Below, piece by piece: positions 1 to 35,898 of a DNA stretch of 64,000 nucleotides (position 1 is the stretch's first letter; each line of letters starts with the position of its first letter). The notes below the pieces were generated by a model. That model made no database searches. It was not told where the DNA came from and saw only the letters and a list, made by a program, of their open reading frames with translations. Source of the stretch: a virus. Location: IMG/VR virus record IMGVR_UViG_3300020411_004289, positions 32,001 through 96,000 of that record, one strand, 5' to 3'. The position numbers and the translations under genes were made by a program.

Positions 1-2
1 AG

Positions 3-566: not shown

Positions 567-1826
567 ATGAATGAAAAGCTAAAAATATTAATATTGTCTG
601 ATCACGCGCTTTCCACTTCGGGCGTGGGTTGCCAGACTCGATTTTTGGTTAACGGTCTAGTAGAAAAAGGCTGTTGGACTGTTAGGCAATTTGGTGCCGC
701 AATCAAGCATGCCAATTATGATACTGTTGTTGTTAATGACGATTTCATCATCAAGCCGATCGATGGTTTCGGTAATAGAGATATGATTTTACAAACATTA
801 GCAATGGAAAAACCTGACGTAATTCTTCTTTTTACAGACCCTAGATTCTTTATCTGGCTATGGGAAATGGAAGATGAGATTCATGATGTATGCCCAATAG
901 CATACTGGCATGTCTGGGACAACAACCCACCGCCGGAATTTAATAAAGTGTTATATGAGTCAACTGATCTAATCAATTGTCACTCATATTTGACTTATGA
1001 AATTGTTTCAAAAATGTTCCCGAAGAAAACCAACTTTATTCCTCATTCTTTACCTGAAGATATCTTCTATCCACTTCCAAAAAATGAAATAAAGACGCAT
1101 AGAGTCAATCTAATAGGCTCGGAGCGAAAAGATCATTTTGTTGCATTTTGGGTTAATAGAAATGCTAGAAGAAAGAGGCCCAATGATGTTTTGTGGGGAT
1201 GGGCTGAGTTTGTTAAAAATGTAAAAGAAAAGCACGGAAAGTCTGATGTAACTCTTTTAATGCACACTGACCCACAAGATCAGGAAGGTCCAAACCTTTT
1301 AGCGACATGTGATCATTTAGGAATCAGTGACAGCGTAGTATTCTCAAATCAAAGAGTAGACTTTGATCAAATGAATATACTGCACAATATATCAGATGTT
1401 TGTGTAAACATTGCCTATGCCGAAGGATTTGGCTTGGCAACGTTAGAGGCTATGCAAACAGGAAATCCAATTATTGCGCTCAAGACAGGCGGTCTAACTA
1501 GACAGGTTGTTGATCATAGAGACGGCTCAGAAAATGGAATTGCACTTGATGTGTCCTATAGATCTTTAGTAGGTTCACAAAATGTGCCTTACATTTACGA
1601 AGACTATTGTTCACATACAGACACTGCTGATGCATTAATGAAGATGTACGAGATGTCTAGTGAAGAAAGAGAATCGCTAGGGCAAAAAGCTAGAAATTAT
1701 GTACTCTCTGAATTTTCTCATCAAGGGACTATTGATGCTTGGCACGAGACTTTGTTTAACTTGGTTAAAAACTGGAAAGAGAGCAAAACACCCCAGTGGA
1801 CAATTGAAGAGGTGAATACAAAATGA
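567..1826 (+). CDS. Glycosyltransferase, GT-B fold (GT4-like)
   Basis: N-terminal KILILSDH...SGVG, NRNARRKR basic motif, and EGFGLATLEAMQTG signature. Confidence 0.9.
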   Translation: MNEKLKILILSDHALSTSGVGCQTRFLVNGLVEKGCWTVRQFGAAIKHANYDTVVVNDDFIIKPIDGFGNRDMILQTLAMEKPDVILLFTDPRFFIWLWEMEDEIHDVCPIAYWHVWDNNPPPEFNKVLYESTDLINCHSYLTYEIVSKMFPKKTNFIPHSLPEDIFYPLPKNEIKTHRVNLIGSERKDHFVAFWVNRNARRKRPNDVLWGWAEFVKNVKEKHGKSDVTLLMHTDPQDQEGPNLLATCDHLGISDSVVFSNQRVDFDQMNILHNISDVCVNIAYAEGFGLATLEAMQTGNPIIALKTGGLTRQVVDHRDGSENGIALDVSYRSLVGSQNVPYIYEDYCSHTDTADALMKMYEMSSEERESLGQKARNYVLSEFSHQGTIDAWHETLFNLVKNWKESKTPQWTIEEVNTK

Positions 1827-2986
1827 AAAAAGTCGTAATAAGAGCACCGCTTTTAACAAAATCCGGATACGGAGTACACTCCCGTCAGCTATTTCAATAT
1901 CTAGTAGGAAAACCAAACATAGAACTAAAAACTCAGATAGTGCCGTGGGGAATAACACCATGGTATACTAATTTTGATAGTTGCAATGGTTTGATCGGCG
2001 AGGCAATAAAGAGATCGAATACGACACCCGAAGAAAAATTCGACGTATCCTTTCAAGTACAGCTTCCAAATGAGTGGGATGCAGGCGTCGCATCTTACAA
2101 CGTAGGCGTCACGGCCGGAGTCGAAACTGATAAGTGCAACCCGACATGGGGGTCTGTTCACTGTAACAAGATGGATAAAATCATAGTTCCCTCAGCGCAT
2201 ACTGAAAAAAGCTTTAAAAACAGCGCTGTGATTCAAACTCCAATGCATGTAGTGCCAGAGGCATATTTTGAAAACTTGATAAACACACCTGAACATCTAG
2301 ATCTAGATATCAGCACTAATTTTAATTTTTTGACTGTAGGTGTACTAACCGGTTTTACACCAGACACAGATAGAAAGAATTTATTTTACTTGATCAAGTG
2401 GTTTGTTGAAGAGTTTAGAAATGACCCTGATGTTGGACTTATTGTTAAGACAAATAGTGGTAGAGACACAGCTATTGACAAGTCTGCTACACGTCAAATG
2501 CTAAATAAAATTTTAAAAGAAGTTGGACACGAAGGAACACCTAAAGTGCATCTTCTGCATGGGTCAATGACCCGTGATGAAATGAACGCATTGTACAAGA
2601 ATTCAAAGGTAAAAGCACTAATATCAGCAACTAGAGGAGAAGGGTTTGGTCTGCCGCTTCTAGAAGCTTCAGTTGCAGGATTGCCTGTCTTGGCGACCAA
2701 TTGGTCAGCCCATACAGAGTTTCTTAATATGGGAAGATGGGTAAAGTTTGATTATGATCTAATGCCAATTAGCGAGCAAAGATGTGATAACAATATTTTT
2801 ATGCCAGGTGCTAATTGGGCGTATGCTCGAGAAGAATCATTTAAAAAATCGTTAAGAAAATTTTATAAGAACTCAGAGATTCCAACACGATGGGCAGCAG
2901 ATCTATCAGAAAAATTAAAAGATACACATTCAATATCTTCTATCATAAAATGCTATGATAAAGTTCTGAAAGAGGTTCTGGGTTGA
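1823..2986 (+). CDS. Glycosyltransferase, GT-B fold (GT4-like)
   Basis: SGYG N-terminal motif, DRKN, and RGEGFGLPLLEASVAGLPVLATNWSAHTEF signature. ATGA overlap with the upstream GT. Confidence 0.9.
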   Translation: MKKVVIRAPLLTKSGYGVHSRQLFQYLVGKPNIELKTQIVPWGITPWYTNFDSCNGLIGEAIKRSNTTPEEKFDVSFQVQLPNEWDAGVASYNVGVTAGVETDKCNPTWGSVHCNKMDKIIVPSAHTEKSFKNSAVIQTPMHVVPEAYFENLINTPEHLDLDISTNFNFLTVGVLTGFTPDTDRKNLFYLIKWFVEEFRNDPDVGLIVKTNSGRDTAIDKSATRQMLNKILKEVGHEGTPKVHLLHGSMTRDEMNALYKNSKVKALISATRGEGFGLPLLEASVAGLPVLATNWSAHTEFLNMGRWVKFDYDLMPISEQRCDNNIFMPGANWAYAREESFKKSLRKFYKNSEIPTRWAADLSEKLKDTHSISSIIKCYDKVLKEVLG

Positions 2987-4019: not shown

Positions 4020-4027
4020 GCAAGAGT

Positions 4028-8901: not shown

Positions 8902-10461
8902 ATGAAGATTTTTTGTACAGCAAGTAAAGACACTTACATTACTGATAAGATTATTGATAATCGGCTTCGAGCAGAAGATGCAAATGTAGGACGAGCTGGA
9001 ACGTTAGATGTCTTTCGCTTATGGAACGAAACAATAATAAACGGCTCTGGAAGTCAAAATGAGCTTTCAAGAGCACTAATAAAGTTCGACTATCAAAAAA
9101 TTCATGAATTGACGGCATCAAAGCTTGACTTATCAAACTTTACTGCAACGCTACGACTATTTGATATGAAGACAGGTCACGCTGTCCCTGCAAACTTTAA
9201 CCTATCAGTACTACCTCTTTCAAAAGCTTTTGATGAAGGGGCAGGTAGAGATATTGGCTCTTTTGGAGATTTGGACTCTTGCAACTTTATAACTTCTTCA
9301 ATAGATGGTACCGGTGCAGCAGTATTGTGGAACATGTCAGGTGCTAATGCTATAGGAGACCTAGGTGCTGCAGATTTAGATATTTTCGATAGGGCAAATT
9401 TTAATGATGGCGCCGGCTTATCGCTTATTGCTAAGTCACAAAATTTTATAAAAGGGACAGAGGACCTATCTGTCGATGTAACAAAAATAGTTTCAGCATC
9501 AGTAGCAGGACAAATTGAAAATCATGGGTTTAGAATTGCCTTTAGCGGAAGTGAAGAAACAGATTCAAAATCTAGGTTTGTCAAAAGATTTGCGTCTAGG
9601 CATGTTTCAAACTTATCTTTGAGGCCAAAAATAGAAATCGCATTTGATGAAAGTATTCAGGACAATCATAGTAATTTTTACTTTGATCTATCAGGGTCAT
9701 TATTTTTAAACTCATACGAAAGGTCTTCTGCAGCAAATTTAGTGTCTGGCAGCGCGCTGACACCTATTGCAGGAACTAACTCGCTAATGCTCAAGCTAAA
9801 AACAGGAAGCTTTGTTTATGCAACATCAGCTTCTCAATATTCTAGAGGAACGATTGATGCAAATGGAGAGAACTTTTTAACAGGTGTCTATTCTGTATCT
9901 TTTGCAATACCTTCAACAGATACTTCTTTAGTGGCGTCTGCTAGTGATTCAACTTTGGCAAATTGGGTTGCTACTAGTGGTTCTTTGACAATGGAGGAAT
10001 ATTGGTATTCTTTGGACGGCAATGTAGGGTTTCATACAGGAAGCATAAAGATAAACAGAGCTGCTAGGACATCAGGTAATTGGACTTCTAGAGAGCCACT
10101 AATACAAATAACCAATCTGAACCATGAGTACAGTACATCAGACGAAGTATCTTTAAGAATATTTGGTAGAGATCTTGTAAATGAGCAAAACCAGCCGGCA
10201 AAGATACCGATTAATTTAAAACCTGTAATATTTGATGAAGTCTATTATAGGGTACGAAATACCAAAGATGGCAAACTAATAATAGACTTTGGTGAAGACG
10301 ACAATTCAACTAGAGTGTCTACAGATAATGAAGGCATGTTCTTCGATTTTCATATGGATACCCTATATGCTAACAATGCGTATGAATTTGAATTTCTAGT
10401 AATTGACAGAGGTCAGCGTCATGTCGTAGCCAACAGAAGCCTTCAGTTTGTTGTGAGGTAA
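8902..10461 (+). CDS. Baseplate/virion structural protein
   Basis: ASKDTYI...SRALIKFD...NHGF...RPKIEI pattern of DNRLRE-like beta-sandwich virion proteins. Follows the gp6-like gene. Confidence 0.6.
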   Translation: MKIFCTASKDTYITDKIIDNRLRAEDANVGRAGTLDVFRLWNETIINGSGSQNELSRALIKFDYQKIHELTASKLDLSNFTATLRLFDMKTGHAVPANFNLSVLPLSKAFDEGAGRDIGSFGDLDSCNFITSSIDGTGAAVLWNMSGANAIGDLGAADLDIFDRANFNDGAGLSLIAKSQNFIKGTEDLSVDVTKIVSASVAGQIENHGFRIAFSGSEETDSKSRFVKRFASRHVSNLSLRPKIEIAFDESIQDNHSNFYFDLSGSLFLNSYERSSAANLVSGSALTPIAGTNSLMLKLKTGSFVYATSASQYSRGTIDANGENFLTGVYSVSFAIPSTDTSLVASASDSTLANWVATSGSLTMEEYWYSLDGNVGFHTGSIKINRAARTSGNWTSREPLIQITNLNHEYSTSDEVSLRIFGRDLVNEQNQPAKIPINLKPVIFDEVYYRVRNTKDGKLIIDFGEDDNSTRVSTDNEGMFFDFHMDTLYANNAYEFEFLVIDRGQRHVVANRSLQFVVR

Positions 10462-10464: not shown

Positions 10465-13400
10465 GTGGCCAGAGACTCTAATACATTTACCAAAACAATT
10501 CTTTTTAAACCTAGCTCACTAAGGTCGCTTAGGGATGGTTCAACTAGAGTTGAAAACATTACCTTGGGTGGAAATAAAGAAAAAACGCAGGGTGAAGCAA
10601 ACCTCATAAGCACTTCAAGCTTTAGGTATGATCCTGCAGGATTTCCTCTTAAAAGCACTCAGCAGCTAAACGTAGACTGGTCAAAGCTAGAAAACCATAC
10701 ATTCTTTAATTCAGCCCAAGTAAAGGTTCAAACTGCGTTTGACAAGATCATAAATCGATTTCCATTTGACGGAACAAAGTCTGAGTATATAGAGTTTAGA
10801 GATAACTTAACTGGTTTTGACAAGTACATTCTAGATACATTTCCTAAAAACTTAGGAAGTCTTAAATTTGATAGGGCATATAATAATGCGCTTAGAGTAC
10901 AAGACTATCAAGGTGCAGGGTTAATATCTGGCAAAAAAGGCTCGACAGGACAAGCTGTTCTAGACTTTTCATATATGCCATTTAGCATAGAAACCCATAT
11001 TTTTATCCCATCCGGATCAATAAATGACAACGAGGTAGTTTTACAAAAGATATCTGGGTCAAGTAGCGGATTAACCTTAGCAGTAACATCTTCTGCATAT
11101 GAAACTAGTCCGCATGGCGAAGCAACGCTATGGGCGTATTTAAGCTCAGGATCCACAGCAATAAGTGCTAGTCTAGGAATAAAAAAAGGTGTGTTCAATC
11201 ATGTCGCATTAGTGTACGACAGAAATGACACAGGAAAACTATTTATTTATGGAAACGGCAATGTACCTAACGAGTCGTCGAAAGCGGCTGTATTTAATGA
11301 CTATGATTTTATAGAATCTTTAACTACGATTGGTAGTGGGACTGTTCATCAAGTTGAAAATATTAATTTCACACCTGTACAAAATCTTTCAGGCGCTCTT
11401 GATGAATTAAGATGGTTTCATAAAACTAGGAATAGAAATCAAATACTAAGCTTTAAAGATCGAAGTATATTTGCTAACAATCAAGACGATCTTCGACTAT
11501 ACTTTAGGTTTAACGAGCCGTCTGGCAGTTTTGGAACCAGCTCCACTACAGGAAATGAAGATCTTGTCTTAGACTATAGTGGAAACGGTCTTCATACTAA
11601 GATTTCAAATTTTAATATGTCACTAAGAGAGACAGGATCTCTTCCAGTTGCTATGTCTCAAGAAGATCCTGCCCTATCTCCTATTCTTTTTCCGTCGTAT
11701 AGACAGGTCGCAGACTTAGGCGTAAAAATGCTTCTTTCCGGAAGCCAATACGACTATAATAATCCCAATCTGATAACAAAATTAATACCCAAACATTATC
11801 TTCTGGAAGCCTCTGAAAGAGAAGGTATGGAAAATGAGTGGGGTGACATTGGTGAGTCTCCGGGATATTATACAGATCAACCCGGTGGCTCAAAAATGAG
11901 ATCACCTCAAATAATTGCATCTCTTTTATACATGTGGGCAGAGTCATTTGATGAAATGAAAATGTTTATAGATGAATTTGGAAGAGCACTTAATGTAGAT
12001 TATCTCACAGATCAAACAATAAGCGATCAGCTTTTACCCTTTTTAGCAAGATATTACGGTCTAAATTTGCCAAACGCATACGCTGATGCATCAATGGCAC
12101 AGCTTTTGGATAGGCAAGATGTAAGAATGGATAATGTTTTGGCTGTCAAGGGATTACAGGGTGTCCAAAATGTAATTTGGAGGCGTGTACTGTCAGGATT
12201 GCCTGAAGTTATAAAATCAAAAGGCACGCGATACTCAATTGAAGCGCTTTTTAGAAACATGGGAATTAATCCTGACGGATCTTTTAGAATAAGAGAGTAT
12301 GGGGGCTCCAGGACAAAGTCCATAAGTGATACATTTGAAAAAAGAAGTGAGATCGCATCTATCTTAGATTTCTCAGGGTCAAAGTCTTCAGGAGGTGTAA
12401 TCGACGGTTCTGGAAAAAGCAGCAACAGACCTTTGATACAATCTTCTTACCTGTCTTCTTCAAGATTAGAGCCGGGTAAACCTTTATCAAAAATCCGGTA
12501 TGGTGACTATGTTTCTGGAGTATCACCCTATTCTGGAGACGGACTATATACTAGCGGCTCCTGGACTGTAGAGGGGACATTTAAGCTAGAAAATCCACTA
12601 AAAAATCCATTAACGCAAAGCTTAATGAGAATGCAAACAACAGGCTCTAGAGCTTCAGGTGTAGCAAACAATTGGCTGATTTTTAATACTGTAGCAACTG
12701 CTTTACTTACTTCTTCTAATTCTCCGGGAACATTATCTCTGTACGGTAGGGTAGGAAGTGGATCAAGCGAGACTTTAAAACTAACCATGACCGGTGTGAA
12801 TGTTTTCGATGGAAACAAGTGGCATGTATCATTTGGGCGCTTAAGAAATGATGAAATCGGATCATATGTTTCTTCAAGCTATTTTCTTAGAGCCGGTAGG
12901 ATGGGAACAAACTCAGTTTTAGAATTTTATACAACGTCTTCTTACTATAACGATCAAGGCGATACTATTCTAAACAGAGTGTCATCATCGAACAATGCTT
13001 CTGGGTCATTTATTACGATCGGAAGTCAAAGCCTCATGTATGATACATCTACTACCTCCGGAGGCGGTTTTCTAAATGAAGTCTCGGACAGCAAAGTAAA
13101 ATATGTTAACTTCACCGGAAAATGTGCAGGAATAAGATTCTTCTCAAAAGGTTTGAGTGAAAAAGAGACGCTGCAGCACGTAAGAAACTTTAAATCTCTA
13201 GGAGTTGAAAACCCACATGTAAACTTCAACTTCAACACGTCAGATGCAGGTTCTTTTGAAAGACTAAGGTTGAATTTGTCAATTGATCAACCTGTAACAA
13301 AATCAAATGCCGCCGGAAACGTACAGATATTTGACTTTAGTCAAAATAATAATCATGGTCTAGGTACCGGCTTTGAAACAAATGTACAGATAATTCGTCC

Positions 13401-13992
13401 TGAAAGATATGATTATATGATTCTCTCCCCGAGGTTTGAACTAGCGACTGATCCTAATAAGATACGAATACGAAGCTTTATTCAGGCTGAAAATGTTAGA
13501 TCAAACGGAATGAGTGATTCTTCTTACGCACCTCTATATAGAATTCCAGAAAACGAAAAACCAAAAGATGACAGGCGTTTAGCAATTGAAGTGTCGTCTG
13601 TACAAGCACTTAACGAAGACATCATGAATATATTCTCAACTCTAGATTCACTAGACAATGCTATTGGGAATCCTGAACTAGTGTTTTCACAAGAATATAA
13701 AAGCTTGCGCCATCTTAGAAAGATTTACTTCAATAGACTAGATGACAAAATGTCACTTAAGAAATTCTTTGAATTCTTCAAGTGGTTCGATCAAACAATT
13801 GGCGATATCTTAGAAGAAGTAATTCCAAGCACTACAAAATATATGGGAACTAATTTTGTGATAGAAAGTCACGCGCTAGAAAGAGCTAAGTTTCCTTATA
13901 AGTACAGCGACATGTATGTCGGGATTCTAGATAGAAGAGAAGCTTCTGTAATATTTTTACAGCAATTTCTAGGAAGACTAAGGAAGTTTTAA
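10465..13992 (+). CDS. Large baseplate wedge protein (gp7/P2-gpI-like core) with two LamG/ConA-like domains
   Basis: LLPFLARYYG...IWRRVL...KSKGTRYSIEALFRNMGI..IREYGG wedge motif. LamG motifs FNHVALVYD...GALDELRWF and DGNKWHVSF. Confidence 0.7.
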   Translation: MARDSNTFTKTILFKPSSLRSLRDGSTRVENITLGGNKEKTQGEANLISTSSFRYDPAGFPLKSTQQLNVDWSKLENHTFFNSAQVKVQTAFDKIINRFPFDGTKSEYIEFRDNLTGFDKYILDTFPKNLGSLKFDRAYNNALRVQDYQGAGLISGKKGSTGQAVLDFSYMPFSIETHIFIPSGSINDNEVVLQKISGSSSGLTLAVTSSAYETSPHGEATLWAYLSSGSTAISASLGIKKGVFNHVALVYDRNDTGKLFIYGNGNVPNESSKAAVFNDYDFIESLTTIGSGTVHQVENINFTPVQNLSGALDELRWFHKTRNRNQILSFKDRSIFANNQDDLRLYFRFNEPSGSFGTSSTTGNEDLVLDYSGNGLHTKISNFNMSLRETGSLPVAMSQEDPALSPILFPSYRQVADLGVKMLLSGSQYDYNNPNLITKLIPKHYLLEASEREGMENEWGDIGESPGYYTDQPGGSKMRSPQIIASLLYMWAESFDEMKMFIDEFGRALNVDYLTDQTISDQLLPFLARYYGLNLPNAYADASMAQLLDRQDVRMDNVLAVKGLQGVQNVIWRRVLSGLPEVIKSKGTRYSIEALFRNMGINPDGSFRIREYGGSRTKSISDTFEKRSEIASILDFSGSKSSGGVIDGSGKSSNRPLIQSSYLSSSRLEPGKPLSKIRYGDYVSGVSPYSGDGLYTSGSWTVEGTFKLENPLKNPLTQSLMRMQTTGSRASGVANNWLIFNTVATALLTSSNSPGTLSLYGRVGSGSSETLKLTMTGVNVFDGNKWHVSFGRLRNDEIGSYVSSSYFLRAGRMGTNSVLEFYTTSSYYNDQGDTILNRVSSSNNASGSFITIGSQSLMYDTSTTSGGGFLNEVSDSKVKYVNFTGKCAGIRFFSKGLSEKETLQHVRNFKSLGVENPHVNFNFNTSDAGSFERLRLNLSIDQPVTKSNAAGNVQIFDFSQNNNHGLGTGFETNVQIIRPERYDYMILSPRFELATDPNKIRIRSFIQAENVRSNGMSDSSYAPLYRIPENEKPKDDRRLAIEVSSVQALNEDIMNIFSTLDSLDNAIGNPELVFSQEYKSLRHLRKIYFNRLDDKMSLKKFFEFFKWFDQTIGDILEEVIPSTTKYMGTNFVIESHALERAKFPYKYSDMYVGILDRREASVIFLQQFLGRLRKF

Positions 13993-15887: not shown

Positions 15888-18800
15888 ATGCCGAGACTAG
15901 GAAAAAAGATCAAAGTATACGATTTAAACCTTCAGGCTCAGCGTAGTCCGATAGGTGTTTCTGCTATTCCTGGAATAACATTTCCAGCAACAACCATGAA
16001 GTGTGGTGTTGACTCTGACCTAAAATCCAATGTTATAGTTTTCTCTTTAGGCTCAAGCTCTCCTGCTTCTCCTGATCGTTGGATTCAGCTAGACGGTCCT
16101 TTCTTAGGTCCGGTAACACTGACATATACAGCAGTGAGAGGCGATTATCCTGGAAAAATAGCTGTAGACGGAGTCCCCGAGGATCTTGCAGCCCCTGAAC
16201 AAGTCGGCGACGACGTTCTTTTAGTTCAAACTTCGAGAGACGGAATTTACTGGAAAACTGTGAGGACAGGAACGGTTGCCGAGTTAAGCAATGAAGTATA
16301 CACGACTATTTCTGTTAATGTTTATGGAGATTCTGGATATAAAATAAGAATAGCTCAGAAAAATCAATTCAATGCTTCAGAGGATGAATATGCCATTTCG
16401 GTGATAACAGTTTCACAAGGAGAGATTTCAGGCTATCTAAATAACCCGCCGCGAATTTTACTACAAGATAACGACAATAGAACTGGAAGCTATCCAACAG
16501 TAGCCCGCACAGGAGATCCCAACTTTACAGGCAGAGCAAATGTGAGGTTTAATGATCAACAAACAGTAGAATACTTTAGCTCATATCCAGAAGCTGAAAT
16601 TACTTTTCTTGATATTCCCCTAGATGCTCATTCTATCTCTTTGACAGGTTCAGCAGAAGATCCATCAGAGAACGTAAAAAAGCTTTTTGAGTTTCAAAAA
16701 GGCGTACTTCAATATTATAACGAATCCATCCTCGTAGACATTAAAGGAAAACAAACACCACGATCAGTGGCATATGCTTTTGCTAAGACAGTCAACAGCG
16801 CTTCTATGGGCATAAAGGCAACCCCAGTTGGAGAAAAAGTAAAACTAAGACAACACAGGCCTTTAATTCCAAGCAACGGGCTAAACATAACAACATCCAG
16901 CTATCCTGCTTTCTTCCTCCCTGCTTCAATAAAACAATTTACACAGCACGGCCCGGAAAATTATGCGTACCCTATGATTTTACCTGTGCCCGGAAGAAAT
17001 GACTATGCCAGTGGATCGACTCATGTAAATGCACTAGTCGCTTCACCTAATATCACTGGATCTTTAACTGCCCCGGCGATTATGGGCACATCAAATAGCG
17101 GCCCGGGAATACATTTTACCCCGGGAGAAAACATAGGACCGTTTGATGAGTCCAGGATTTACATCGACAATGACCTAAGTTTCTATACTGAAGGGACCAC
17201 AGTCAATGGCACAACTTTGCCAGGATTTGGTGAAAGACTAGGTTCTAAGGTAAGTCTATCTTTTGACATATCAACTAATGAACCCTGTTCTGTGTATTTT
17301 TCAACTGGAACAGTTTCACCTGGAGGTACACATGCATCAAGGGCAGATGCTCTAGCCGCAGGGGTTAATTCCGGGATAGCGTATTATAATTTTGCGGAAA
17401 GCAAGTGGGAAATTGTAGGAGATCTACTTACCGGCAGTAATGTAGATATTTTTAATTCAAATCCACAGACAGTTGCAGATTCAATGCTAGCGATAATGCC
17501 CTCTCAGTATGACTATTGGTCCTATCATACAGCACCCTTGACTAATATGCTTAAGCATCAAGGGTCACCCACTGAGTTCGCAGGATTCCCTCTAGCCAGC
17601 AAGTTTGACCCTTCAGAAGCTCAGCTACTTGATATGTCAGACTATATTACAGCTCCATTCTTATTAGAAAAATTAGAGCTGACAGTTTCTGCATCTTATG
17701 CTATGACACAGGTGATGACGGACATAAATGGTGTCCATAATGCTTCGTTTATGCTACTTTTACAAAGAGATGCAGTGCCTTCTGGTTCGTTTACTTCTGA
17801 GCTAACATTGCTAAAAAATAACGGGTCAAACACTCTGACAGATATGACGTGGCTCGCGCCTAAGAAAAAAACATTTGAGACTCATAAAGATAGAAAAATT
17901 ATCTGGTATGGTAGAATAGGAAGATACCTCGAATTCGATCACCCAACCCAGACTTATAGCTCTTTAGAAGAATTTAGAATTAGGGCCCCACATGTTTTTG
18001 CAGCATGCGATTTGTGGATACCACAGCTTAATCCTTACGGCAATAATCAGTATCCTTCCACTGGTTCTTTCACACTAAGAGGTTCTCCTAATACACCTAT
18101 CGGATGTGGTGTGTCAAATAATGTGGTGCGACCTAGAGGTACGCGTACCTCCGCGCACGCGGATATTCCGGAGTATGCAGTCATAGGAAGAAAGACAGGA
18201 GGAAGAGATCTTATAAATATTGCAGACGGACGTTCTTTTATAAGCTCTATTGCAGGCGCTAAAGAGGTCGGCACACATTATGTAGGCTATGAAGCTAATT
18301 CTGCCGGCAGCAGATTTGTACCACTCTATGAAAAGGATTCATCTGAATCTCCTTTTCTTTTGCTCCCAACAGACAAGTTAATGCTTGTGCATGTCAATCA
18401 AAAAATGCCTAATCCCAACGACGACGTACTTACCTGGTCGAAAGGCGAAGACCAAGTAGTTCAGAAAAGATCAACACTTCTCCCGGGCAAATCTAAACTA
18501 ACTCTTTTTGGCTCAATGGTGCGTGAAGGAAAAGCAGCAAATACGACCACACTAAATCAGCCACTCACGTCTGACGCAATACACGAGGATGTTAGAGATG
18601 ATATATCGCCCTTAGGTGAGTCTCTATGCCTAGATCAGTGGCAAGTAGAGCCTGTGTCTACATATTACAAGTCCTATCTAGACAATATTGTCACGGGGTC
18701 AATGTATAATCGAAATAACCCTACTCAGTTTATAAACCCACACACACCGCACGTTAGAAAGTCCCAAGGAACCACCGCAGGAACTGGTATCGTTTCTGGC

Positions 18801-20189
18801 CGTGTAGGGAGCCTCCTTTCTTCCGGAAGCATACAAAGATTTGTAAGGGCTGTAGACACAGAGCAGATATTTTACGACTCCACAGTTCCAAATTTGCAGG
18901 AAGTTGTTGACTTCTATCAAATGATGACACTCAATATCCTCGGTGGGTTTAATTATTTATTAATGTCACTCGATACAGAAGAGTGGTCGCAAGGCTGGTA
19001 CATCCACGAAGCCTCCGCTGGCAGCTTAAGATTTAATAGAAGCGGGATGTTCGAACATATAGGGCATTTAAAAAGATCTTTATCACCATCTACTGCGATA
19101 AAAAGAACTGATGGTGTTTCCGGACAAAACGCAAGGATCGACGGCTTATATCTCTTTTCTTCAGGAACACTACCGATTTACCCGGCCTCCATGTGGACGG
19201 GTCTGATGGAGACAGGGGTCAATTCCCAATTCTTTTTAATCGACTTCAAAGACGGTCAACCATCTACGGCCCTTGCGGGCTCGAGCCCGGGTTACCGGCC
19301 GGTCATGACACCGCAGTCAAAATATGGCTCGTCCTACATGCTTAAAATGCTCTGTGGTATTGGAGATTTTCATGGTATGCCTTTAAATCAAGCCGCTGAA
19401 GCATCACCTCGTCGAGGGCCGGCAGCGGCGACCAGTGTCAATTTTGGGCCCGACCCAGGAGATTGGCCTCTCGACGGCTCCGGAGCCTCAGACGTAACGT
19501 TTTATCTAGGACCCGGGTCAACGAACCCGGAAAAATATATATGTGCAGGATCTAATGAAGGCCCCGGTAGCGGCTATCAAGGTAAATTTGCTTTCGACTC
19601 CGATCCATCTAAAACCGCACGCAATTTTAGAGAAGTTGTTAATACATACTCAGAGCACCTTCGCGTCTTTTACGGCAACGCAGGCGAAGGAATTACAGTA
19701 ACCTTAGCTTCAGGTTCAGTTACAGATTCACTTTCTATGGTTGGGGAGAAGGCATGGGATCAGTCAGGTCCCTCAGGGACCTCTAACTGGGCCGGCACAT
19801 ACGGCGGAGAAACCTTCAGTTTGGCTGCTGACACCCTCCTATTGAGAGGTTTTAAGTACGGCCTATATAACGCTGTTCCTTCATCACCCACTGCTGTCTT
19901 TAGAAGCGATACATACGGACAATTTAGAGACATGTTAGAGCCCAGGCTTTTTAGTGCATTTTTCAATAAGAAGAAGCTAGAGCGTCCTCCAGTAGTGATA
20001 ACTTTTACTAGTAGAGCAGGTGAAAGAGGTGTGGCACCTGAAGAAACAAACTCACAAAATTTATCAAATCATGCAACTTCTTCCGTACCGTTTCGAGATG
20101 GTGTTTCCAGAGACAGAAAAGATATTCAGCCAGATCTATTACCTAGAGTTGAACTCGAGATGTTTGACTTGAAGCTCGGTAGCAGCTAG
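15888..20189 (+). CDS. Very large virion/baseplate-associated adsorption protein
   Basis: 1433 aa, Gly/Ser/Thr-rich, with an N-terminal jelly-roll-like domain containing SRDGIYW. Lies in the baseplate operon. Confidence 0.6.
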   Translation: MPRLGKKIKVYDLNLQAQRSPIGVSAIPGITFPATTMKCGVDSDLKSNVIVFSLGSSSPASPDRWIQLDGPFLGPVTLTYTAVRGDYPGKIAVDGVPEDLAAPEQVGDDVLLVQTSRDGIYWKTVRTGTVAELSNEVYTTISVNVYGDSGYKIRIAQKNQFNASEDEYAISVITVSQGEISGYLNNPPRILLQDNDNRTGSYPTVARTGDPNFTGRANVRFNDQQTVEYFSSYPEAEITFLDIPLDAHSISLTGSAEDPSENVKKLFEFQKGVLQYYNESILVDIKGKQTPRSVAYAFAKTVNSASMGIKATPVGEKVKLRQHRPLIPSNGLNITTSSYPAFFLPASIKQFTQHGPENYAYPMILPVPGRNDYASGSTHVNALVASPNITGSLTAPAIMGTSNSGPGIHFTPGENIGPFDESRIYIDNDLSFYTEGTTVNGTTLPGFGERLGSKVSLSFDISTNEPCSVYFSTGTVSPGGTHASRADALAAGVNSGIAYYNFAESKWEIVGDLLTGSNVDIFNSNPQTVADSMLAIMPSQYDYWSYHTAPLTNMLKHQGSPTEFAGFPLASKFDPSEAQLLDMSDYITAPFLLEKLELTVSASYAMTQVMTDINGVHNASFMLLLQRDAVPSGSFTSELTLLKNNGSNTLTDMTWLAPKKKTFETHKDRKIIWYGRIGRYLEFDHPTQTYSSLEEFRIRAPHVFAACDLWIPQLNPYGNNQYPSTGSFTLRGSPNTPIGCGVSNNVVRPRGTRTSAHADIPEYAVIGRKTGGRDLINIADGRSFISSIAGAKEVGTHYVGYEANSAGSRFVPLYEKDSSESPFLLLPTDKLMLVHVNQKMPNPNDDVLTWSKGEDQVVQKRSTLLPGKSKLTLFGSMVREGKAANTTTLNQPLTSDAIHEDVRDDISPLGESLCLDQWQVEPVSTYYKSYLDNIVTGSMYNRNNPTQFINPHTPHVRKSQGTTAGTGIVSGRVGSLLSSGSIQRFVRAVDTEQIFYDSTVPNLQEVVDFYQMMTLNILGGFNYLLMSLDTEEWSQGWYIHEASAGSLRFNRSGMFEHIGHLKRSLSPSTAIKRTDGVSGQNARIDGLYLFSSGTLPIYPASMWTGLMETGVNSQFFLIDFKDGQPSTALAGSSPGYRPVMTPQSKYGSSYMLKMLCGIGDFHGMPLNQAAEASPRRGPAAATSVNFGPDPGDWPLDGSGASDVTFYLGPGSTNPEKYICAGSNEGPGSGYQGKFAFDSDPSKTARNFREVVNTYSEHLRVFYGNAGEGITVTLASGSVTDSLSMVGEKAWDQSGPSGTSNWAGTYGGETFSLAADTLLLRGFKYGLYNAVPSSPTAVFRSDTYGQFRDMLEPRLFSAFFNKKKLERPPVVITFTSRAGERGVAPEETNSQNLSNHATSSVPFRDGVSRDRKDIQPDLLPRVELEMFDLKLGSS

Positions 20190-22099: not shown

Positions 22100-23053
22100 A
22101 TGGCTGGTATTCTAGACAACAAAGAAAGAATGATTGATTTCATAATGACTGAAGAAGGCAAGCGCCAGGCTGCCAGTGGTCAAATGAAAATAGAGTATGC
22201 TGCTTTTACTGACATGCATACTTTTTATGCAGCTTCTGGCACTCTAATGCCCAACATTGCTGAAGATGCCTCTGGTAGAATATTTTTTGAGGCTACAAAT
22301 CGATTTCAAGATGTAATAGTTCCCGAACTGGAAGCAGGCATGTCGCTGCGACCGTTTAGGACAGCAGACTTTGACTTTGACGGAAAAGTAATAGCATCCG
22401 GTACGTTTAGGGTCGGTTATGAGAAAAAGGCAAATATCATAACCGGTTCAAAAATAACAAATATTTCTGACAGAAGCTTAAGTGGCATTACTAGCAATTT
22501 TAATGATCTAAGGGTGTTGGGAACTAAAGATCCTTTTGCTACGACCTCCGGATTTGAAACTTCTATCACAACGGGTAGTTTTTATTTTTGGGACAAGATG
22601 CCGATGGGAAGATCATATGATGGATCACCAACTGCACTAGAAGATTGCGAAAGTCTTTTCGCAGATAGACGATTTTCACATTTTTCTAATTTCTCTTATT
22701 TGCCGCCTGTTAACAAACCATCAGAAGGCGCACCAAATGGAAAACCTTTGGGCATGTATCCAAAACTAAACGAAACTCCGATAATGACATTTCAAGACTT
22801 GGAAAAGTCTTTAAAAGAAAAGCAAAAAGTAGAGATTGATTTTACTGATACATCTAGAGAAAATAATCTAATAGGGCAGATATTCGAATATGATAGTACA
22901 GGAATAGACAAGCTCTCTATTATTGACTTTGGAGAGTTTGATGATGACGATCCTTTTAGTCGCGGCAAAAGAGTCTTTTTTGTTGGAAAAATTCTTAGAG
23001 ATGCCAACGGCGCAGAAACGTTTATGAATATATTCACAGTGGTATTTGACTAA
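22100..23053 (+). CDS. Baseplate/tail-collar-like structural protein (paralog of 31403..32116 N-terminus)
   Basis: MAGILDNKERMIDFIMTEEGKRQAASGQMKIEYAAFTD aligns by eye with MGFLDHSTNNIIIDAVLTDTGRKMLADNRGRFKIAFFSLSD. Confidence 0.6.
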   Translation: MAGILDNKERMIDFIMTEEGKRQAASGQMKIEYAAFTDMHTFYAASGTLMPNIAEDASGRIFFEATNRFQDVIVPELEAGMSLRPFRTADFDFDGKVIASGTFRVGYEKKANIITGSKITNISDRSLSGITSNFNDLRVLGTKDPFATTSGFETSITTGSFYFWDKMPMGRSYDGSPTALEDCESLFADRRFSHFSNFSYLPPVNKPSEGAPNGKPLGMYPKLNETPIMTFQDLEKSLKEKQKVEIDFTDTSRENNLIGQIFEYDSTGIDKLSIIDFGEFDDDDPFSRGKRVFFVGKILRDANGAETFMNIFTVVFD

Positions 23054-25905: not shown

Positions 25906-25920
25906 AGGTGTAGAACTAAC

Positions 25921-31349: not shown

Positions 31350-31379
31350 AATGCAATTTACGGCGAGCGATGTAAGCGT

Positions 31380-31386
31380 ATATTTA
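31380..31386 (+). promoter_or_regulatory. Putative late promoter ATATTTA
   Basis: Motif upstream of the GAGG RBS and ATG 31403. Confidence 0.6.
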
Positions 31387-31402
31387 ACAGCAGAGGTGAG
31401 CT

Positions 31403-32116
31403 ATGGGATTTTTAGACCATTCAACAAATAATATAATAATCGACGCAGTCCTGACAGATACAGGGCGAAAAATGTTAGCTGATAACAGAGGAAGATTTAA
31501 AATCGCATTCTTTTCTCTTTCAGACGATGAAGTAGACTATCAAATCATTGAAAAGTTTGGTAGAGCTGTGGGTAAAGAAAAGATATCTAAAAACACACCT
31601 ATCTTTGAAGCACAGACAAAAGCTAGTTTGGCATTGAAACACAGACTTCTTACTCTACCAGACCCAACTGTAATTAGGCTTCCTAGTTTGTCACTGTCAT
31701 CGACTAACCTTTCTAGTAATTTGTTGACGTTTAATACGTCAACATCATCCACAAATACTGTAAGTGTAGAACAGGTAATTGAAGGCGAGACTATGATACC
31801 TGACGGTGTTTCAGATACGACATTTACAATTTTGGTACCAGATAGATTTCTATCTGTGCAAGGAAGATCAGAAATATCAGTTGAATCAACTACAAGAATT
31901 GCATCTTATAGCATTACAAGATCTGATACTAATAGTAAAAACGGCGCAAAGGCAGATTTTACATTGATAATTCAGCCAGGCCTGGACGATACGATGTTCA
32001 ATATTTACGGTGATTCCGACAATAAAAACAATATTTCAAGTGTAGTATCGATTGTTGGTGATCAGTCGGGAATTAGAAAAGACTTTGCAATTGCGATAAG
32101 TCGCCCGGCAGCATAA
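31403..32116 (+). CDS. Baseplate/tail-collar-like structural protein
   Basis: DAVLTDTGRKMLA...FKIAFFSLSDDEVDY resembles the N-terminal half of the P2 gpH-type tail-collar domain. Confidence 0.6.
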   Translation: MGFLDHSTNNIIIDAVLTDTGRKMLADNRGRFKIAFFSLSDDEVDYQIIEKFGRAVGKEKISKNTPIFEAQTKASLALKHRLLTLPDPTVIRLPSLSLSSTNLSSNLLTFNTSTSSTNTVSVEQVIEGETMIPDGVSDTTFTILVPDRFLSVQGRSEISVESTTRIASYSITRSDTNSKNGAKADFTLIIQPGLDDTMFNIYGDSDNKNNISSVVSIVGDQSGIRKDFAIAISRPAA

Positions 32117-32130
32117 TAAAAGAGGAATAA

Positions 32131-33414
32131 ATGGCACAGTTAACAGGTGGAAGTTTTAAAAGAATTAGTCCAGAAGATATTAAGGTTCGCAGATCGACCC
32201 TTAATCAGTTAGTTGACGTAATTCAAGAAGATGTTTCCGGATCAGCAACTAGAAGAAAATATCAAGTTTTTGTAACAGGTGGCGTCGGCCCTGGGATTAC
32301 GTCTTCGTTGTTCCAGACAGTTTATGACCAAGACTTTAGCTTACAGACAGCTAATGCAATGTGTGATATGACTGTAGGTCTGTATTCCAGCGGATCAACA
32401 GTAACTAATGCCAGTACAGGTGAAGATTCTGCTGGTAAGCTTTTGTTTCCGTCACAGTCTCTAATGATGAGAGAAAAAGTTGATGTTTACAAGCAGTATG
32501 CTGCAAATCTTTTAGGTGATGCTGACGCTGCTTTCTTTTCACCTTTTGGAAGTACAAGAACTAGCTCAACAGATCGTCACTCTAACGACAGGATCGAAGA
32601 GGCTCTTTTTATCTCTTATAAACGTCTTTTTGCGAGAGACAAAATAAAAAGAGAAACTTTTGCTACAAGATTTTATAGAAGCGGCGCGCTGGATGGATCC
32701 GATGGTTCATCATATCCAAACAGCATGACAGGATCAAACATTGCTGTGACTTCAACATCCGGAAGTGCAATCTTTAGTGATATAGGTGCAGCTTCTAATA
32801 TTAGAAGAACATTCGGTGGTGAGGTAGGTAATATTGTAAATGCAGCCAATACAGCTGAAAATGTAGGGCTTATTTTCTATGATCAAGGAACAGTTGTTTT
32901 GGACTTGGGCAAAGCCACCTTCGCCGACCAGCATATGAGCGGCGCGATCCAAGCAATGGCTAGAGCAACTACTATTGATGGAGCAGTAATTCCGTCAGGA
33001 TTAACAGTTCTAGGGTCTTCAGGTGGAAATCCACATGCTAAATTTGTTCCTGACTTTATGGTATCCGGATCAATTGATCAAATCGTTGATCATGTTGCCA
33101 GCACCCGATTTCAATCGGGCTCTCTGACTTCAGCAACATTTCAAAATGTTACAAATATTAATTCGACCCTGATATTTTGTAGAGCTACAGCAGATGAGTT
33201 TAACTACTCTACAAACCCAACATTCACAGATTCAGCTGGTCGAATTCGTGTGGTAGACCAAGGACAAGAAGACACACAGCGGACATTTGCTTTTCCTACA
33301 ACTGTAGGGCTTCATGATGAGTTCGGTAATCTGCTAGCTGTCGCAAAAATGTCACGTCCAATTGAAAAGAACGACGAAAAGGATATCACATTTAGGATTC
33401 GACTGGACTTCTAA
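32131..33414 (+). CDS. Baseplate/tail-collar-like structural protein
   Basis: VGLIFYDQG, FCRATADEFNYSTNPTF, and C-terminal TTVGLHDEFGNLLAVAKMSRPIEK...IRLDF. Confidence 0.65.
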   Translation: MAQLTGGSFKRISPEDIKVRRSTLNQLVDVIQEDVSGSATRRKYQVFVTGGVGPGITSSLFQTVYDQDFSLQTANAMCDMTVGLYSSGSTVTNASTGEDSAGKLLFPSQSLMMREKVDVYKQYAANLLGDADAAFFSPFGSTRTSSTDRHSNDRIEEALFISYKRLFARDKIKRETFATRFYRSGALDGSDGSSYPNSMTGSNIAVTSTSGSAIFSDIGAASNIRRTFGGEVGNIVNAANTAENVGLIFYDQGTVVLDLGKATFADQHMSGAIQAMARATTIDGAVIPSGLTVLGSSGGNPHAKFVPDFMVSGSIDQIVDHVASTRFQSGSLTSATFQNVTNINSTLIFCRATADEFNYSTNPTFTDSAGRIRVVDQGQEDTQRTFAFPTTVGLHDEFGNLLAVAKMSRPIEKNDEKDITFRIRLDF

Positions 33415-33426
33415 AGAGGCCCAGGT

Positions 33427-35898
33427 ATGTCCATATTCAGGCTCAATAAAGAAAATTTTGAGAATTTTGAGCTAATAGCCAATCCGCGAAGACAATTTAT
33501 TTCTTCGTCCGCAGAAGGTATTACAGGATCCGTTGCTCTTTTTGCAGATGCATCAACTTCTTTAAAAGAGTTAGCGTCAACATTTGGAGATGCATCAGGT
33601 AGTGTCAAGGACAATTCTCTAGACCTACACAGAGAAAGCCTTTCCGACACAATAGCTAATGCAATCACAAACGGAAATTCAATTAATGCATATGAATCTG
33701 CTAATGAGTACCTAAACCTGGTTAATAATCAAAAATCTTCGCCTATGATGAATAAGCGTCAGGAGGTTTTAAGATATACACCAGGAGTAAGATTTGAGAA
33801 AAACTATCTTACAAAAAAGACAATACAGAATTCTGTTTTTCCTTTCTATAGAAATGAAGTGCCGACTGCACAGTGGTCTTATACAAACTATCATAGTTTA
33901 AACTTTGTAACAGGCGGGCTTCCAGGGTATGATTTGCCGCGACAGTCCGTGTTAATATATCCAGCGGGGACAGGATCAGTAACCTCAGAAAACTGGAATC
34001 CTTTAGCACCAAAAAACAGATTTACATTTGACTTCTGGATTAATCCACGCTATACAACAGATCGGCCTGGAGACGAGTTTCACGCCGGGACAGTCTTGCA
34101 TATGTCTTCGTGCTATGCTGTGAGCCTGGTATCAGGAAGCAGAGTAGGCATAGATGGTCGTCCGTCAGGCTATCGAATGATGTTGCAGCTAAGTCATAGT
34201 GCAGACGTTAGCCCATCTAGTGTTAATCTAGATATTGCAAACAACTCAAGGTCACACCCAAAAGATTTAATTTTTCTATCTAGCGACAACGCGCTGACTA
34301 GAAATACATGGCATCATGTAGCTATTAGGTGGGACCCGTCAATTAATAACGGGTATGGTACGTTTCACATAGACGGAAAAGACCAAGGCGCTTTTATTAT
34401 AAACTCATCTTCAGTAATGCAAGTTACTTCTGCAAACACAAACCTGCTAGATCCCGACGCCTTGTTTGTAGGCAACTATTATTCCGGAGACAATAATGGC
34501 GGCAATGCCATTGCGAAATTTTTTAATGTAAATGCGCATAGACAAGAAGGCGTGGCGCTTTTTAGTCATCATCTTGAGTCAGACCCGTTAGTATTTAATT
34601 TTTCAAATCCACTAAACGCTGAAGTCCATGACTTGAAAATATTTGATCGCTACAGAAACGATCAAAAGACAATCACAGGGTCGATGGTAGGTGTAGGCTT
34701 AGACGAGCCAGGCCTATTATTTTACGTACCGCCATTTTTTACCAAAGACTCTAGAACCCGGTTGGTTCTACAGACACCATTTTTTGATGCTGCCGGCTCT
34801 ACAGAAGATCCTTTTAATGTAGCAATGTCATTCGGACTAGGTGCCTTAGATATAAATTTAGAAAACTTTACAAAAGACTTTGTAACAAACCAGTTTCCAA
34901 GACTTTTAAACTTGACAGCTTCAAGAATTGACACGCAGATAAATGTACCGAAAACAGCGAATTATTTGCTTTATGAGTCTGGATCGTCTAGAAAAAGAAA
35001 CTTGACTATTTTGCCGTGTGATAATGGCAAGTTTTTTCCTAACTTTAATATGCTCAAGGCAAAACCAGTACATGGCATCACAGACATTCAAAGTGGCACT
35101 TACGATTCTGCATATTATTCTGGCTCATTTAACGATAGGTTTGTTGATGATTTTGGAAACAAGAATTATTCTTTTATAAGCCTAAGAAACCTGGTAGATA
35201 CAGGATCAGCCGGGAGCTACAATGTAATGCCAGGTAGAATTCCTGACACACAAGAATCCTCAGGGTCTCTTTTGGCTCCTTTACTTGGGCCCTCTCCTGA
35301 AGATCCAGGAGTGTCGCCTGGAAATATCTTGACAGTTTTACAGAGATTTCAAGATTCTTCGTCTAACGAAGTTGTATTTTTTGATATATCAAATATGTTT
35401 TATGGAGATGAAATTAAGCGAGGTACGTTTGTCCTAGAAGATTTAAACGTATCTGGTTCTGGTGGAAGAATGAGCTTTAAGCTTAAGGATAACGGATACG
35501 GAAATCTCTATAGAGCAGACTGTTCGGGATCACATGCCAGCTGGGCTAGTGTTGGAAATGTTTTCTATGAAGAGGGTTTAGCTGTAATTAAAACTCCGCA
35601 TATGCCACACTTTGGTAGAGACTCTTTTAAGGTGTCCTTTGAGGGTACTAGAAGTGTCTATGTCTTAGAAGTATTAGTGCCAGCTAACCAGTCTTTACAT
35701 AACTCTTCTAGTAATCCTGCATACAAAGCCTTAGCCCCAACAGATTATCCTAACGAGTTGGCAAATGATTTCTCTTATATCACCGGGATCACGTTGCATG
35801 ACAACAACATGAATGTAATTGGAAGAGCGAACTTGGCACAACCGGTTGTTAAAAGAGAAGCTGATAAATTTGTATTCAAGCTAAGAATGGATTACTAA
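33427..35898 (+). CDS. Baseplate structural protein with LamG domain and tail-collar-like C-terminus
   Basis: FTFDFWINPR...NTWHHVAIRWD LamG motif. The C-terminus VGNVFYEEG...NSSSNP...YITGITLHD...ANLAQPVVK...LRMDY is paralogous to the 32131 ORF. Confidence 0.7.
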   Translation: MSIFRLNKENFENFELIANPRRQFISSSAEGITGSVALFADASTSLKELASTFGDASGSVKDNSLDLHRESLSDTIANAITNGNSINAYESANEYLNLVNNQKSSPMMNKRQEVLRYTPGVRFEKNYLTKKTIQNSVFPFYRNEVPTAQWSYTNYHSLNFVTGGLPGYDLPRQSVLIYPAGTGSVTSENWNPLAPKNRFTFDFWINPRYTTDRPGDEFHAGTVLHMSSCYAVSLVSGSRVGIDGRPSGYRMMLQLSHSADVSPSSVNLDIANNSRSHPKDLIFLSSDNALTRNTWHHVAIRWDPSINNGYGTFHIDGKDQGAFIINSSSVMQVTSANTNLLDPDALFVGNYYSGDNNGGNAIAKFFNVNAHRQEGVALFSHHLESDPLVFNFSNPLNAEVHDLKIFDRYRNDQKTITGSMVGVGLDEPGLLFYVPPFFTKDSRTRLVLQTPFFDAAGSTEDPFNVAMSFGLGALDINLENFTKDFVTNQFPRLLNLTASRIDTQINVPKTANYLLYESGSSRKRNLTILPCDNGKFFPNFNMLKAKPVHGITDIQSGTYDSAYYSGSFNDRFVDDFGNKNYSFISLRNLVDTGSAGSYNVMPGRIPDTQESSGSLLAPLLGPSPEDPGVSPGNILTVLQRFQDSSSNEVVFFDISNMFYGDEIKRGTFVLEDLNVSGSGGRMSFKLKDNGYGNLYRADCSGSHASWASVGNVFYEEGLAVIKTPHMPHFGRDSFKVSFEGTRSVYVLEVLVPANQSLHNSSSNPAYKALAPTDYPNELANDFSYITGITLHDNNMNVIGRANLAQPVVKREADKFVFKLRMDY

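Follow-up and report, generated by a model that had tools for sequence, protein, structure and literature searches.

Does an uncultured marine phage label its virion proteins for glycosylation with a short amino acid tag? The question is raised by a 64,000-nucleotide stretch of DNA (hereafter the window), which comprises bases 32001-96000 of the 106-kb viral contig IMGVR_UViG_3300020411_004289. Near its start lie two adjacent glycosyltransferase (GT) genes, GT1 and GT2, and predicted virion proteins encoded downstream are rich in the tripeptide [ST]GS (Ser or Thr, then Gly, then Ser). By PHROG and Pfam matches of the window proteins the phage is a T4-like myovirus. The contig represents about 38-40% of its genome (CheckV-type estimates for close relatives). 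Every long open reading frame (ORF) of the window, including all features of the window given below, is on the + strand; ORFs are named by their first position. A preliminary description had proposed that [ST]GS is a sequon for O-glycosylation of the virion. This is borne out in part: the enrichment is robust to composition, is not due to a common domain and is distributed together with the GT genes, but a subsidiary claim about SAS, TAS and SSS triplets was wrong and the independent contrasts are few. The best explanation of the data is that the GT1-GT2 pair reads [ST]GS as a sequon for O-glycosylation, and a probability of about 0.5 is assigned to it. No description of the motif was found in the literature searched.

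Over-representation of the [ST]GS tripeptide

The motif counts first reported for the window proved exact: 7 in 8902, 11 in 10465, 10 in 15888, 6 in 32131, 11 in 33427, 6 in tail sheath 57133, 4 in the major capsid protein (MCP) 50732 and 3 in the neck protein 54017. The enrichment survived composition-preserving shuffling, the control suggested at that time, both globally and block-wise. In global shuffles the observed count was reached in 0 of 2000 cases for 8902, 10465, 15888, 32131, 33427 and sheath 1, and the MCP and neck counts had p values of ~0.01 each. When residues were shuffled inside 15- or 25-residue blocks, the pooled count was 61 versus 12.7 +/- 3.5 expected (shuffle maximum 28), which rules out locally S/T/G-rich composition as the cause.

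All 8000 tripeptides of the contig were then ranked, with expectations taken from the own composition of each protein. SGS was first (44 vs 12.4 expected, p 3e-12) and TGS second (31 vs 9.5, p 2e-8), and the third-ranked tripeptide had a p of 3e-5. The same two were the top of all 8000 in 471 pooled proteins of relatives (TGS 351 vs 93, SGS 338 vs 106). The motif is strict, with only S or T at position 1, only G at position 2 and only S at position 3. Near-variants are found at 1.2x ([ST]GT), 1.0x ([ST]GA), 0.6x ([ST]GN) and 1.0x ([ST]NS) of expectation, and permutations with the same composition reach only 1.1-1.9x, so the order of the residues matters. The flanks are hydrophobic (V/L/I at -1 and -2; L/F/I/V/A at +1), with charge nearly excluded at -1 and Pro, Lys and Arg nearly excluded at +1. 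The triplets SAS, TAS and SSS, which had been described as common in the same proteins, show no excess beyond composition (11 vs 11.7, 7 vs 8.8 and 22 vs 16.2 expected, respectively).

A DNA-level site, such as a restriction or methylation target, was rejected: among the 75 motif instances the commonest 9-mer occurs only 4 times, and off-frame counts equal the background. The codons beneath the motif are diverse and the signal is therefore one of the protein level.

Distribution among the proteins of the phage

Across the contig the excess is restricted to a subset of the virion-region proteins. The feature was originally assigned to positions 567-35898, but this range is too narrow: the MCP, the neck protein and both sheaths (50732-63422) also belong to it. 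A weaker excess is seen in the fibre genes upstream of the window.

Just 3' of the baseplate wedge gene is the orphan 8902..10461 with 7 motifs (0.7 expected), whose orthologs in the cultured Flavobacterium phage immuto and Microcystis phage Mel-JY01 have 3 vs 0.5 and 4 vs 0.4. It is followed by a large LamG-bearing protein (10465..13992; 11 vs 2.0), the Mel-JY01 homolog of which has 11 vs 1.4, and by a 1433-residue orphan (15888..20189; 10 vs 2.3). Further downstream lie the orphan 32131..33414 (6 vs 0.8) and the richest protein, LamG-bearing 33427..35898 (11 vs 1.0). When homolog families were pooled over 92 related IMG/VR loci, the family-wide observed/expected ratios (O/E) of these two were 7.7 and 8.0. 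The MCP (50732..52636, phrog_138) has 4 motifs, with a family O/E of 4.1 in close relatives; three of the four are in its lineage-specific N-terminal part, beyond the best PHROG core match. The neck protein (54017..55192, phrog_211) has 3 and a family O/E of 6.3. Tail sheath paralog 1 (57133..60312, phrog_23) contains 6 motifs, all in an insertion region spanning residues 115-648, and paralog 2 (60354..63422) contains 3, with a family mean of 4.5 vs 1.2 expected. Both sheath families show a ~4x excess. The sheath and MCP motifs fall beyond the conserved core matched by PHROG profiles.

No motif occurs among 56 tail tube sequences, and the families of 55194 and 64107 have 0 vs 3.8 and 6.7 expected, respectively. 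In portal, terminase, protease, RuvC, SbcCD and the replication enzymes the motif is at chance. The preliminary description had also stressed its scarcity in non-structural proteins. GT1, GT2, 3288, RuvC, primase and SbcCD do hold a single motif combined, but this is chance level and not depletion. The glycan island described below (28 ORFs, from the island start through GT2) likewise has 3 motifs vs 4.2 expected.

At the sequence level the motif-rich proteins have no detectable common domain, in agreement with the earlier view that the motif recurs in unrelated folds. A shared domain was rejected as its source: only the sheath paralogs are alike, plus the C-terminal tails of 32131 (33295-33414) and 33427 (35773-35898). 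These tails match over 42 amino acids (29% identity, E 1e-4), with nothing else alike between the two proteins, and are possibly an attachment or trimerisation element.

Selective retention and structural context

Motif sites of the window proteins were retained in 46% of ortholog comparisons (six families), versus 16-26% for the matched controls [ST]Gx, xGS, [ST]xS, xGx and all other tripeptides. An alignment of 13 orthologs of 33427 (36-71% identity) has several columns in which 12-13 sequences share the motif, at an overall identity of 36-44%, and other sites come and go; in the conserved columns S and T are exchanged at position 1 only. The tripeptide is over-represented, ordered and selectively retained in its target class, which, judged from sequence, is what would generally be expected of a sequon.

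Across 76 homologs of the sheath, the two paralogs and a distant single-sheath group each contain ~4.3-4.6 motifs vs 1.1-1.4 expected. The motifs of the three groups are mostly at different alignment columns, nearly all in the insertion region, and this indicates convergent gain and not inheritance. The 'far' sheath relatives (L050-L079) were dropped as a negative control, as their own sheath and neck proteins are enriched. The two tandem paralogs (57133-63422, ~1000 amino acids each, 33% identical) are kept in the close clade; some relatives (L002, L003) have a third sheath-like ORF, and the distant group and the cultured relatives have one sheath.

The AlphaFold2 model of sheath 1, made with 59 homologs (pLDDT 84, pTM 0.85), resembles T4 gp18 and further sheaths in fold. 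As the alignment with minimal sheaths covers only ~300 columns, the remainder of sheath 1 consists of added domains. In T4 gp18 such added domains decorate the exterior of the tail. In the model, motifs 115 and 298 are at strand edges beside low-confidence loops, 523 and 575 are in coil, and 612 and 648 are in short linkers right before helices, in a cap-like position. Mapping on a predicted structure, which had been put forward as a check with surface loops as the expected location, places every site at irregular or edge positions of the outward-facing insertion region, where they may be exposed. The presence of several kinds of site fits accessibility and argues against one fold-intrinsic element; a single hairpin-type element is not supported, given the three local contexts. 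The AlphaFold model of 33427, from 12 orthologs, had a pLDDT of 41 and was not used.

In one related locus (L045:1-4830, - strand) a giant protein of >1610 amino acids, cut by the contig end, is built of ~105-residue tandem repeats, a layout that may resemble a Calx-beta-like beta-sandwich. It has three [ST]GS at fixed places per repeat, 41 motifs in total vs 5.7 expected.

The GT1-GT2 pair

GT1 (567..1826; PF00534 47.3 bits, phrog_2170) and GT2 (1823..2986; PF00534 42.0 bits) are both GT4-family enzymes, with scores above the curated cut-off of PF00534 (Glycos_transf_1), 26.4 bits. The start of GT2 overlaps GT1 by ATGA, and the two are the coupled GT enzymes that had been placed at the head of the region. 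In 21 homologs of GT1 the EX7E residues E286 and E294 and the cluster R198/R202/K203 are invariant or nearly so. In 21 homologs of GT2 the EX7E residues E273 and E281 are invariant, and R184 and K185 invariant or nearly so. Because EX7E and the basic donor-binding residues are kept in both families, GT1 and GT2 are probably both catalytically intact and active.

A model of the GT1-GT2 heterodimer had an interface score (ipSAE) of 0.90, with 0.00 for the best control; at least 92% of contacts recur between runs, and the partner pLDDT is at least 91. Of 80 solved complexes 58 attained this mark, as did 2 of 110 mismatched pairs, counts that are only rough here since own alignments were used. By this modelling GT1 and GT2 are predicted to bind each other.

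GT1 orthologs at 54-68% identity are present in 4 of 5 large related contigs, and the family extends to >5700 metagenomic clusters. The pair heads a conserved block that runs into the baseplate genes, and the order GT1-GT2-2983-3288-4028-4394-6535-wedge-8902-10465 is kept in four divergent relatives. A contig without a GT1 match (G003) is uninformative: it is without the wedge gene too, so the block is not covered. Immediately upstream of GT1 is the C-terminal part of a PD-(D/E)XK nuclease-family gene (1..530; PF12705, E 7e-21), which starts 294 nt before the window. Immuto, Mel-JY01 and LR756508, an uncultured phage of 484 kb, each have an ortholog of this gene upstream of their GT1. In Mel-JY01 (PP395634 83444-84932) separate ORFs encode the N- and C-terminal halves of the GT1 homolog, which could be a sequencing frameshift or a truly split GT-B enzyme.

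Co-distribution of the motif and the pair

By blastn the capsid region has no match among cultured phages, and there is no close cultured relative. The best sheath matches, at ~35% identity, are in Mel-JY01, LR756508 and immuto. GT1 homologs were detected in 7 of 50,697 cultured-phage records, representing four phages: these three and Rhodothermus phage RM378, which serves as cultured reference for the 'Far-T4' phages (PMC4360716) and has a smaller gene set in common with the window contig. GT2 directly follows GT1 in immuto (profile E 2e-76), Mel-JY01 (1e-73) and RM378 (7e-10, partial). In LR756508, a GT2 profile search of the whole 484 kb found none, though GT1 is present.

Co-occurrence, another suggested check, was examined in nine genomes, and the motif is in excess in 4 of 4 with the pair and 0 of 5 without it. 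The O/E is 2.63 in the window contig (SGS rank 1, TGS rank 2), 2.52 in immuto (ranks 1 and 3), 2.41 in Mel-JY01 (ranks 4 and 29, with fibre-block proteins at 11 vs 1.4 and 9 vs 0.6) and 2.67 in RM378 (ranks 2 and 6), where the excess was predicted in advance of looking. LR756508 has an O/E of 1.38, ranks of 203 and 595 and no enriched protein. Neither GT nor motif excess is found in T4 (O/E 0.67), P-HM1 (1.39) and Syn1 (1.43), and mycobacteriophage Che8, which has other GTs, stands at 1.58 with TGS at rank 4766. LR756508 is nevertheless within the lineage (MCP 52%, sheath 37%, wedge 30% identity): its sheath has 0 motifs, as does its neck protein, versus 7 in the sheath of immuto and 4 in that of Mel-JY01 at equal distance. 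Since the positive phages infect hosts of three phyla (Flavobacterium, Rhodothermus, Microcystis), the motif goes with the phage, and a host-phylum effect is ruled out.

When the phyletic pattern of the motif was compared with those of 83 contig proteins over seven comparison genomes, only GT2 and the orphan 31403 matched. The latter (31403..32116) is a 237-residue protein without the motif and without Pfam, PHROG or Atlas annotation. Its gene always adjoins a 32131-type gene and is present in immuto, Mel-JY01 and RM378, not in LR756508, T4 or the cyanophages.

In the whole genome of immuto (MW353176), GSF is the second most over-represented tripeptide (35 vs 10.4), between SGS and TGS, which suggests that the tag may be extended to [ST]-G-S-F in that phage.

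The variable glycan island

The ORFs upstream of the pair mostly have no counterpart between the window contig and the four relatives and form a variable island. It encodes GT2- and GT4-family glycosyltransferases, methyltransferases, nucleotidyltransferases, a UDP-glucose dehydrogenase and two epimerase/dehydratases, together with a phosphoenolpyruvate (PEP) mutase-cytidylyltransferase fusion, a split decarboxylase, an iron-containing alcohol dehydrogenase, a B12 radical SAM enzyme and a sulfatase-superfamily protein. Neither a priming phosphoglycosyltransferase nor a flippase, polymerase or ABC exporter was detected in the island by Pfam, and this lack of lipid-carrier and export genes fits a soluble acceptor. 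No hydroxymethylase-like (ThyS), 5mYOX or C5-methyltransferase protein was detected among the island proteins by Pfam either.

The sulfatase/alkaline-phosphatase-superfamily gene (contig G000 21548-24294, upstream of the window; L195:1548-4291) is located directly before the PEP-mutase-cytidylyltransferase fusion, and its product is a candidate transferase of a phosphonate head group.

Interpretation and alternative explanations

In the mechanism that we infer, which covers the reader of the motif, the sugar, the acceptor residue and the division of labour between pair and island, [ST]GS with its hydrophobic flanks would be a recognition tag on exposed virion proteins. The tag would be read in the cytoplasm of the infected cell by the phage-encoded GT1-GT2 complex, whose members would be active retaining-type GT4 enzymes using nucleotide sugars. 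The complex would O-glycosylate one of the hydroxyls of the tag, most likely that of the invariant Ser in position 3. The variable island would supply activated sugars, methyl groups and the phosphonate head group, and its further transferases would build on the conserved core, giving capsid, neck, sheath, baseplate and fibres a coat that is specific to the strain.

Several observations weigh against this mechanism. The modification of the virion proteins is deduced from sequence and gene distribution and not from chemistry, and the acceptor specificity of GT4 enzymes is unreadable from sequence. Solvent exposure of the motifs is deduced from secondary structure and the known architecture of sheaths, and the L045 repeats indicate a structural role of the motif in at least some contexts. 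The phylogenetically independent contrasts come down in essence to the absence from LR756508 within the lineage and the presence in the distant RM378, as co-inheritance largely links GT1, GT2 and this sheath lineage. RM378 itself shows no enrichment in sheath and MCP, and its match to GT2 is partial (E 7e-10 over 120 residues). Orphan 31403 has the same phyletic pattern as GT2, and as the contig is 38% of the genome, other candidate readers could sit elsewhere. Finally, the conserved PD-(D/E)XK nuclease beside GT1 also fits a DNA-related module.

Alternatively, the tripeptide could be an unmodified structural or physico-chemical preference of the exposed domains of this lineage (a turn, helix cap or hinge), with the GT co-distribution a phylogenetic coincidence. 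Hydrophobic residues on both sides and the exclusion of charge at -1 are as found at a strand-turn-strand junction, two sites of the sheath model are helix-cap-like, the motif recurs at three fixed places per ~105-residue repeat in L045, and the co-inheritance just mentioned could produce such a coincidence. A preference for turns, however, would favour GT, GN or GA and have no need of S/T at position 1, whereas those variants are at 0.6-1.2x. Sheath 1 alone has the motif in three different local structures, independent gains at different positions took place in unrelated folds and in paralogs, the beta-rich fibres of T4 and the cyanophages are without such an excess, and LR756508 has the same folds but not the motif. 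This explanation is considered unlikely. A different reader acting in trans would fit the pattern of 31403, whose gene is always beside a motif-rich one; such a reader could be an assembly factor (31403 itself or the product of a gene beyond the contig, given that only 38% of the genome is in hand), or the island sulfatase-superfamily enzyme, placing a phosphonate or phospho-form on Ser, with the GT pair acting later or elsewhere. The sulfatase-superfamily enzymes PptA and EptC put phospho-forms directly onto Ser/Thr of pilin and flagellar proteins, and the protein found here is beside the PEP-mutase/cytidylyltransferase phosphonate branch. The island genes, including this branch, are however not conserved in relatives in which the motif is kept, 31403 matches no enzyme-like family, and GT2 fits the pattern equally and is an enzyme of the right kind, all of which leaves another reader with a small probability.

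It is also conceivable that GT1 and GT2 glycosylate the DNA of the phage or a glycan of the host envelope, like the T4 glucosyltransferases and the GTs of serotype-converting phages, and have no relation to the tripeptide. Most characterised phage GTs do act on DNA or host polysaccharide (PMC12619734), the nuclease is a conserved neighbour of GT1, and in RM378 the pair is located among replication genes. DNA-modifying phage GTs are, though, GT-A or beta-GT-like and usually clustered with 5mYOX/C5-methyltransferase or thymidylate-synthase-like genes (bioRxiv 10.1101/2023.12.21.572611), and no hydroxymethylase-like, 5mYOX, C5-methyltransferase, lipid-carrier or export gene was found in the island. 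The DNA of immuto, which has the pair, was analysed by liquid chromatography-UV-tandem mass spectrometry and yielded dA, dC, dT and fdPreQ1 (replacing dG), with no glycosylated base reported (PMC10516641), so DNA is not an evident acceptor. As the motif itself would moreover be left unexplained, this possibility is judged improbable. The sequon explanation, in which the pair glycosylates virion proteins, remains the preferred one.

Comparison with known systems

A bacterial parallel to the pair is streptococcal GtfA-GtfB, an adjacent GT-B/GT4-type heterocomplex that adds O-GlcNAc to Ser of serine-rich repeat adhesins in the cytoplasm. Here too two adjacent GT-B proteins are found, and their binding is predicted by the model. 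GtfB is non-catalytic, whereas GT1 and GT2 both keep EX7E, and the invariance of this motif in both rules out a GtfB-like inactive chaperone partner. The substrate of GtfA-GtfB is formed by long low-complexity Ser-rich repeats, in contrast to the isolated tripeptides of this phage, where permuted S/G triplets are not enriched. The general O-glycosylation sequon of Bacteroidota, D-(S/T)-(A/I/L/V/M/T), is host-encoded, and the glycan is added in the periplasm en bloc from a lipid carrier. Like [ST]GS it consists of three residues and occurs in many unrelated proteins, and some hosts of this phage lineage are Bacteroidota, but the motif is another and [ST]GS is also found in phages of Rhodothermus and Microcystis. 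The alpha- and beta-glucosyltransferases of T4 are, like GT1 and GT2, phage-encoded soluble GT-B enzymes that use nucleotide sugars. They and other DNA-glycosylating GTs belong to other GT families and are partnered with hydroxymethylase or 5mYOX/C5-methyltransferase genes (bioRxiv 10.1101/2023.12.21.572611).

Among viruses, glycosylation of the phage particle has been demonstrated in a few mycobacteriophages, where capsid and tail tube subunits are reported to carry glycans at their C-termini (PMC12619734, citing Freeman et al. 2023, Cell Host Microbe). Che8 and Corndog are reported to have phage-encoded cytoplasmic GTs for structural proteins, with the GT genes in or beside the structural module (Corndog gp36-38; PMC12619734, PMC13445384). 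The GT1-GT2 pair likewise adjoins structural genes, and a role in decorating the particle is proposed for it. The present phage differs in having dozens of candidate internal sites in capsid, neck, sheath, baseplate and fibres and none in the tail tube. In Che8 the GT1 profile matches nothing, and there is no genome-wide enrichment of the motif. The cluster F mycobacteriophages offered no informative contrast, their capsid proteins being at least 97% identical to one another. No sequon for mycobacteriophage glycosylation, and no attachment rule for glycosylation of phage particles in general, was found defined in the literature. The Che8 capsid protein ends in TGS and its tail tube protein in DGS, and Corndog capsid and gp49 end in VGS and GDS (loci L203-L208: Che8 NC_004680 5051-5872 and 7613-8422; Corndog NC_004685 20547-21779 and 24316-25131). 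A GS end is expected by chance in ~0.7% of ORFs (about 0.007 per ORF). A terminal x-G-S may be the glycan acceptor in Che8 and Corndog, which are unrelated to each other, a suggestion offered as a lead only.

Chlorovirus PBCV-1 also has its own soluble glycosylation machinery and non-canonical sites on surface proteins (PMC9614988, PMC5408694), and the PDB sequence matches of GT1 include the chlorovirus GT4-like protein B736L (3oy2, E 1.3e-5). It differs in being a eukaryotic virus whose glycans are N-linked to Asn in another site motif, on what is essentially a single target protein. The core genome of the large aquatic T4-like 'moraphages' includes four glycosyltransferase orthogroups according to a 2025 paper, which mentions no protein motif (PMC12619734).

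A more far-reaching version of the sequon explanation can be formulated, although it is doubtful. [ST]GS would then be a true sequon, the first for any phage, and the two active sites of the heterodimer would possibly serve the two hydroxyls of the tag. Conserved priming would feed hypervariable, export-free islands, here with a phosphonate branch; sugar-coated, antigenically variable virions would be usual among the abundant 'Far-T4' phages of oceans and lakes; and the Gly-Ser ends of the mycobacteriophage proteins would reflect a shared or convergent acceptor rule.

If the sequon explanation is true, glycosylated virion proteins could be predicted from sequence in thousands of uncultured phages, and the large variable sugar-building islands of marine phages would gain a purpose. 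Particle surfaces would be shaped by selection, for example for shielding, adhesion, stability or decoy functions. A direct test is possible in three cultured phages that have the motif as well as the pair: Flavobacterium phage immuto, Rhodothermus phage RM378 and Microcystis phage Mel-JY01.

Other genes of the window

The T4-like assignment rests on PHROG and Pfam matches to a baseplate wedge protein (7046), a RuvC-like resolvase (35898), a primase (36492), a fused SbcCD (37451), the large terminase (41186), the portal (42830) and a prohead protease (45611). Pfam and PHROG searches with 23053, 25921, 29562, 31403 and the enriched proteins of RM378, immuto and Mel-JY01 gave almost no matches, and the placement of these proteins in the virion is therefore based on gene position. 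Among the motif-rich genes, 23053-31349 encodes three large orphans (950, 1213 and 595 amino acids) that have no family match and 1 motif in total vs ~1.9 expected; these may be internal baseplate components.

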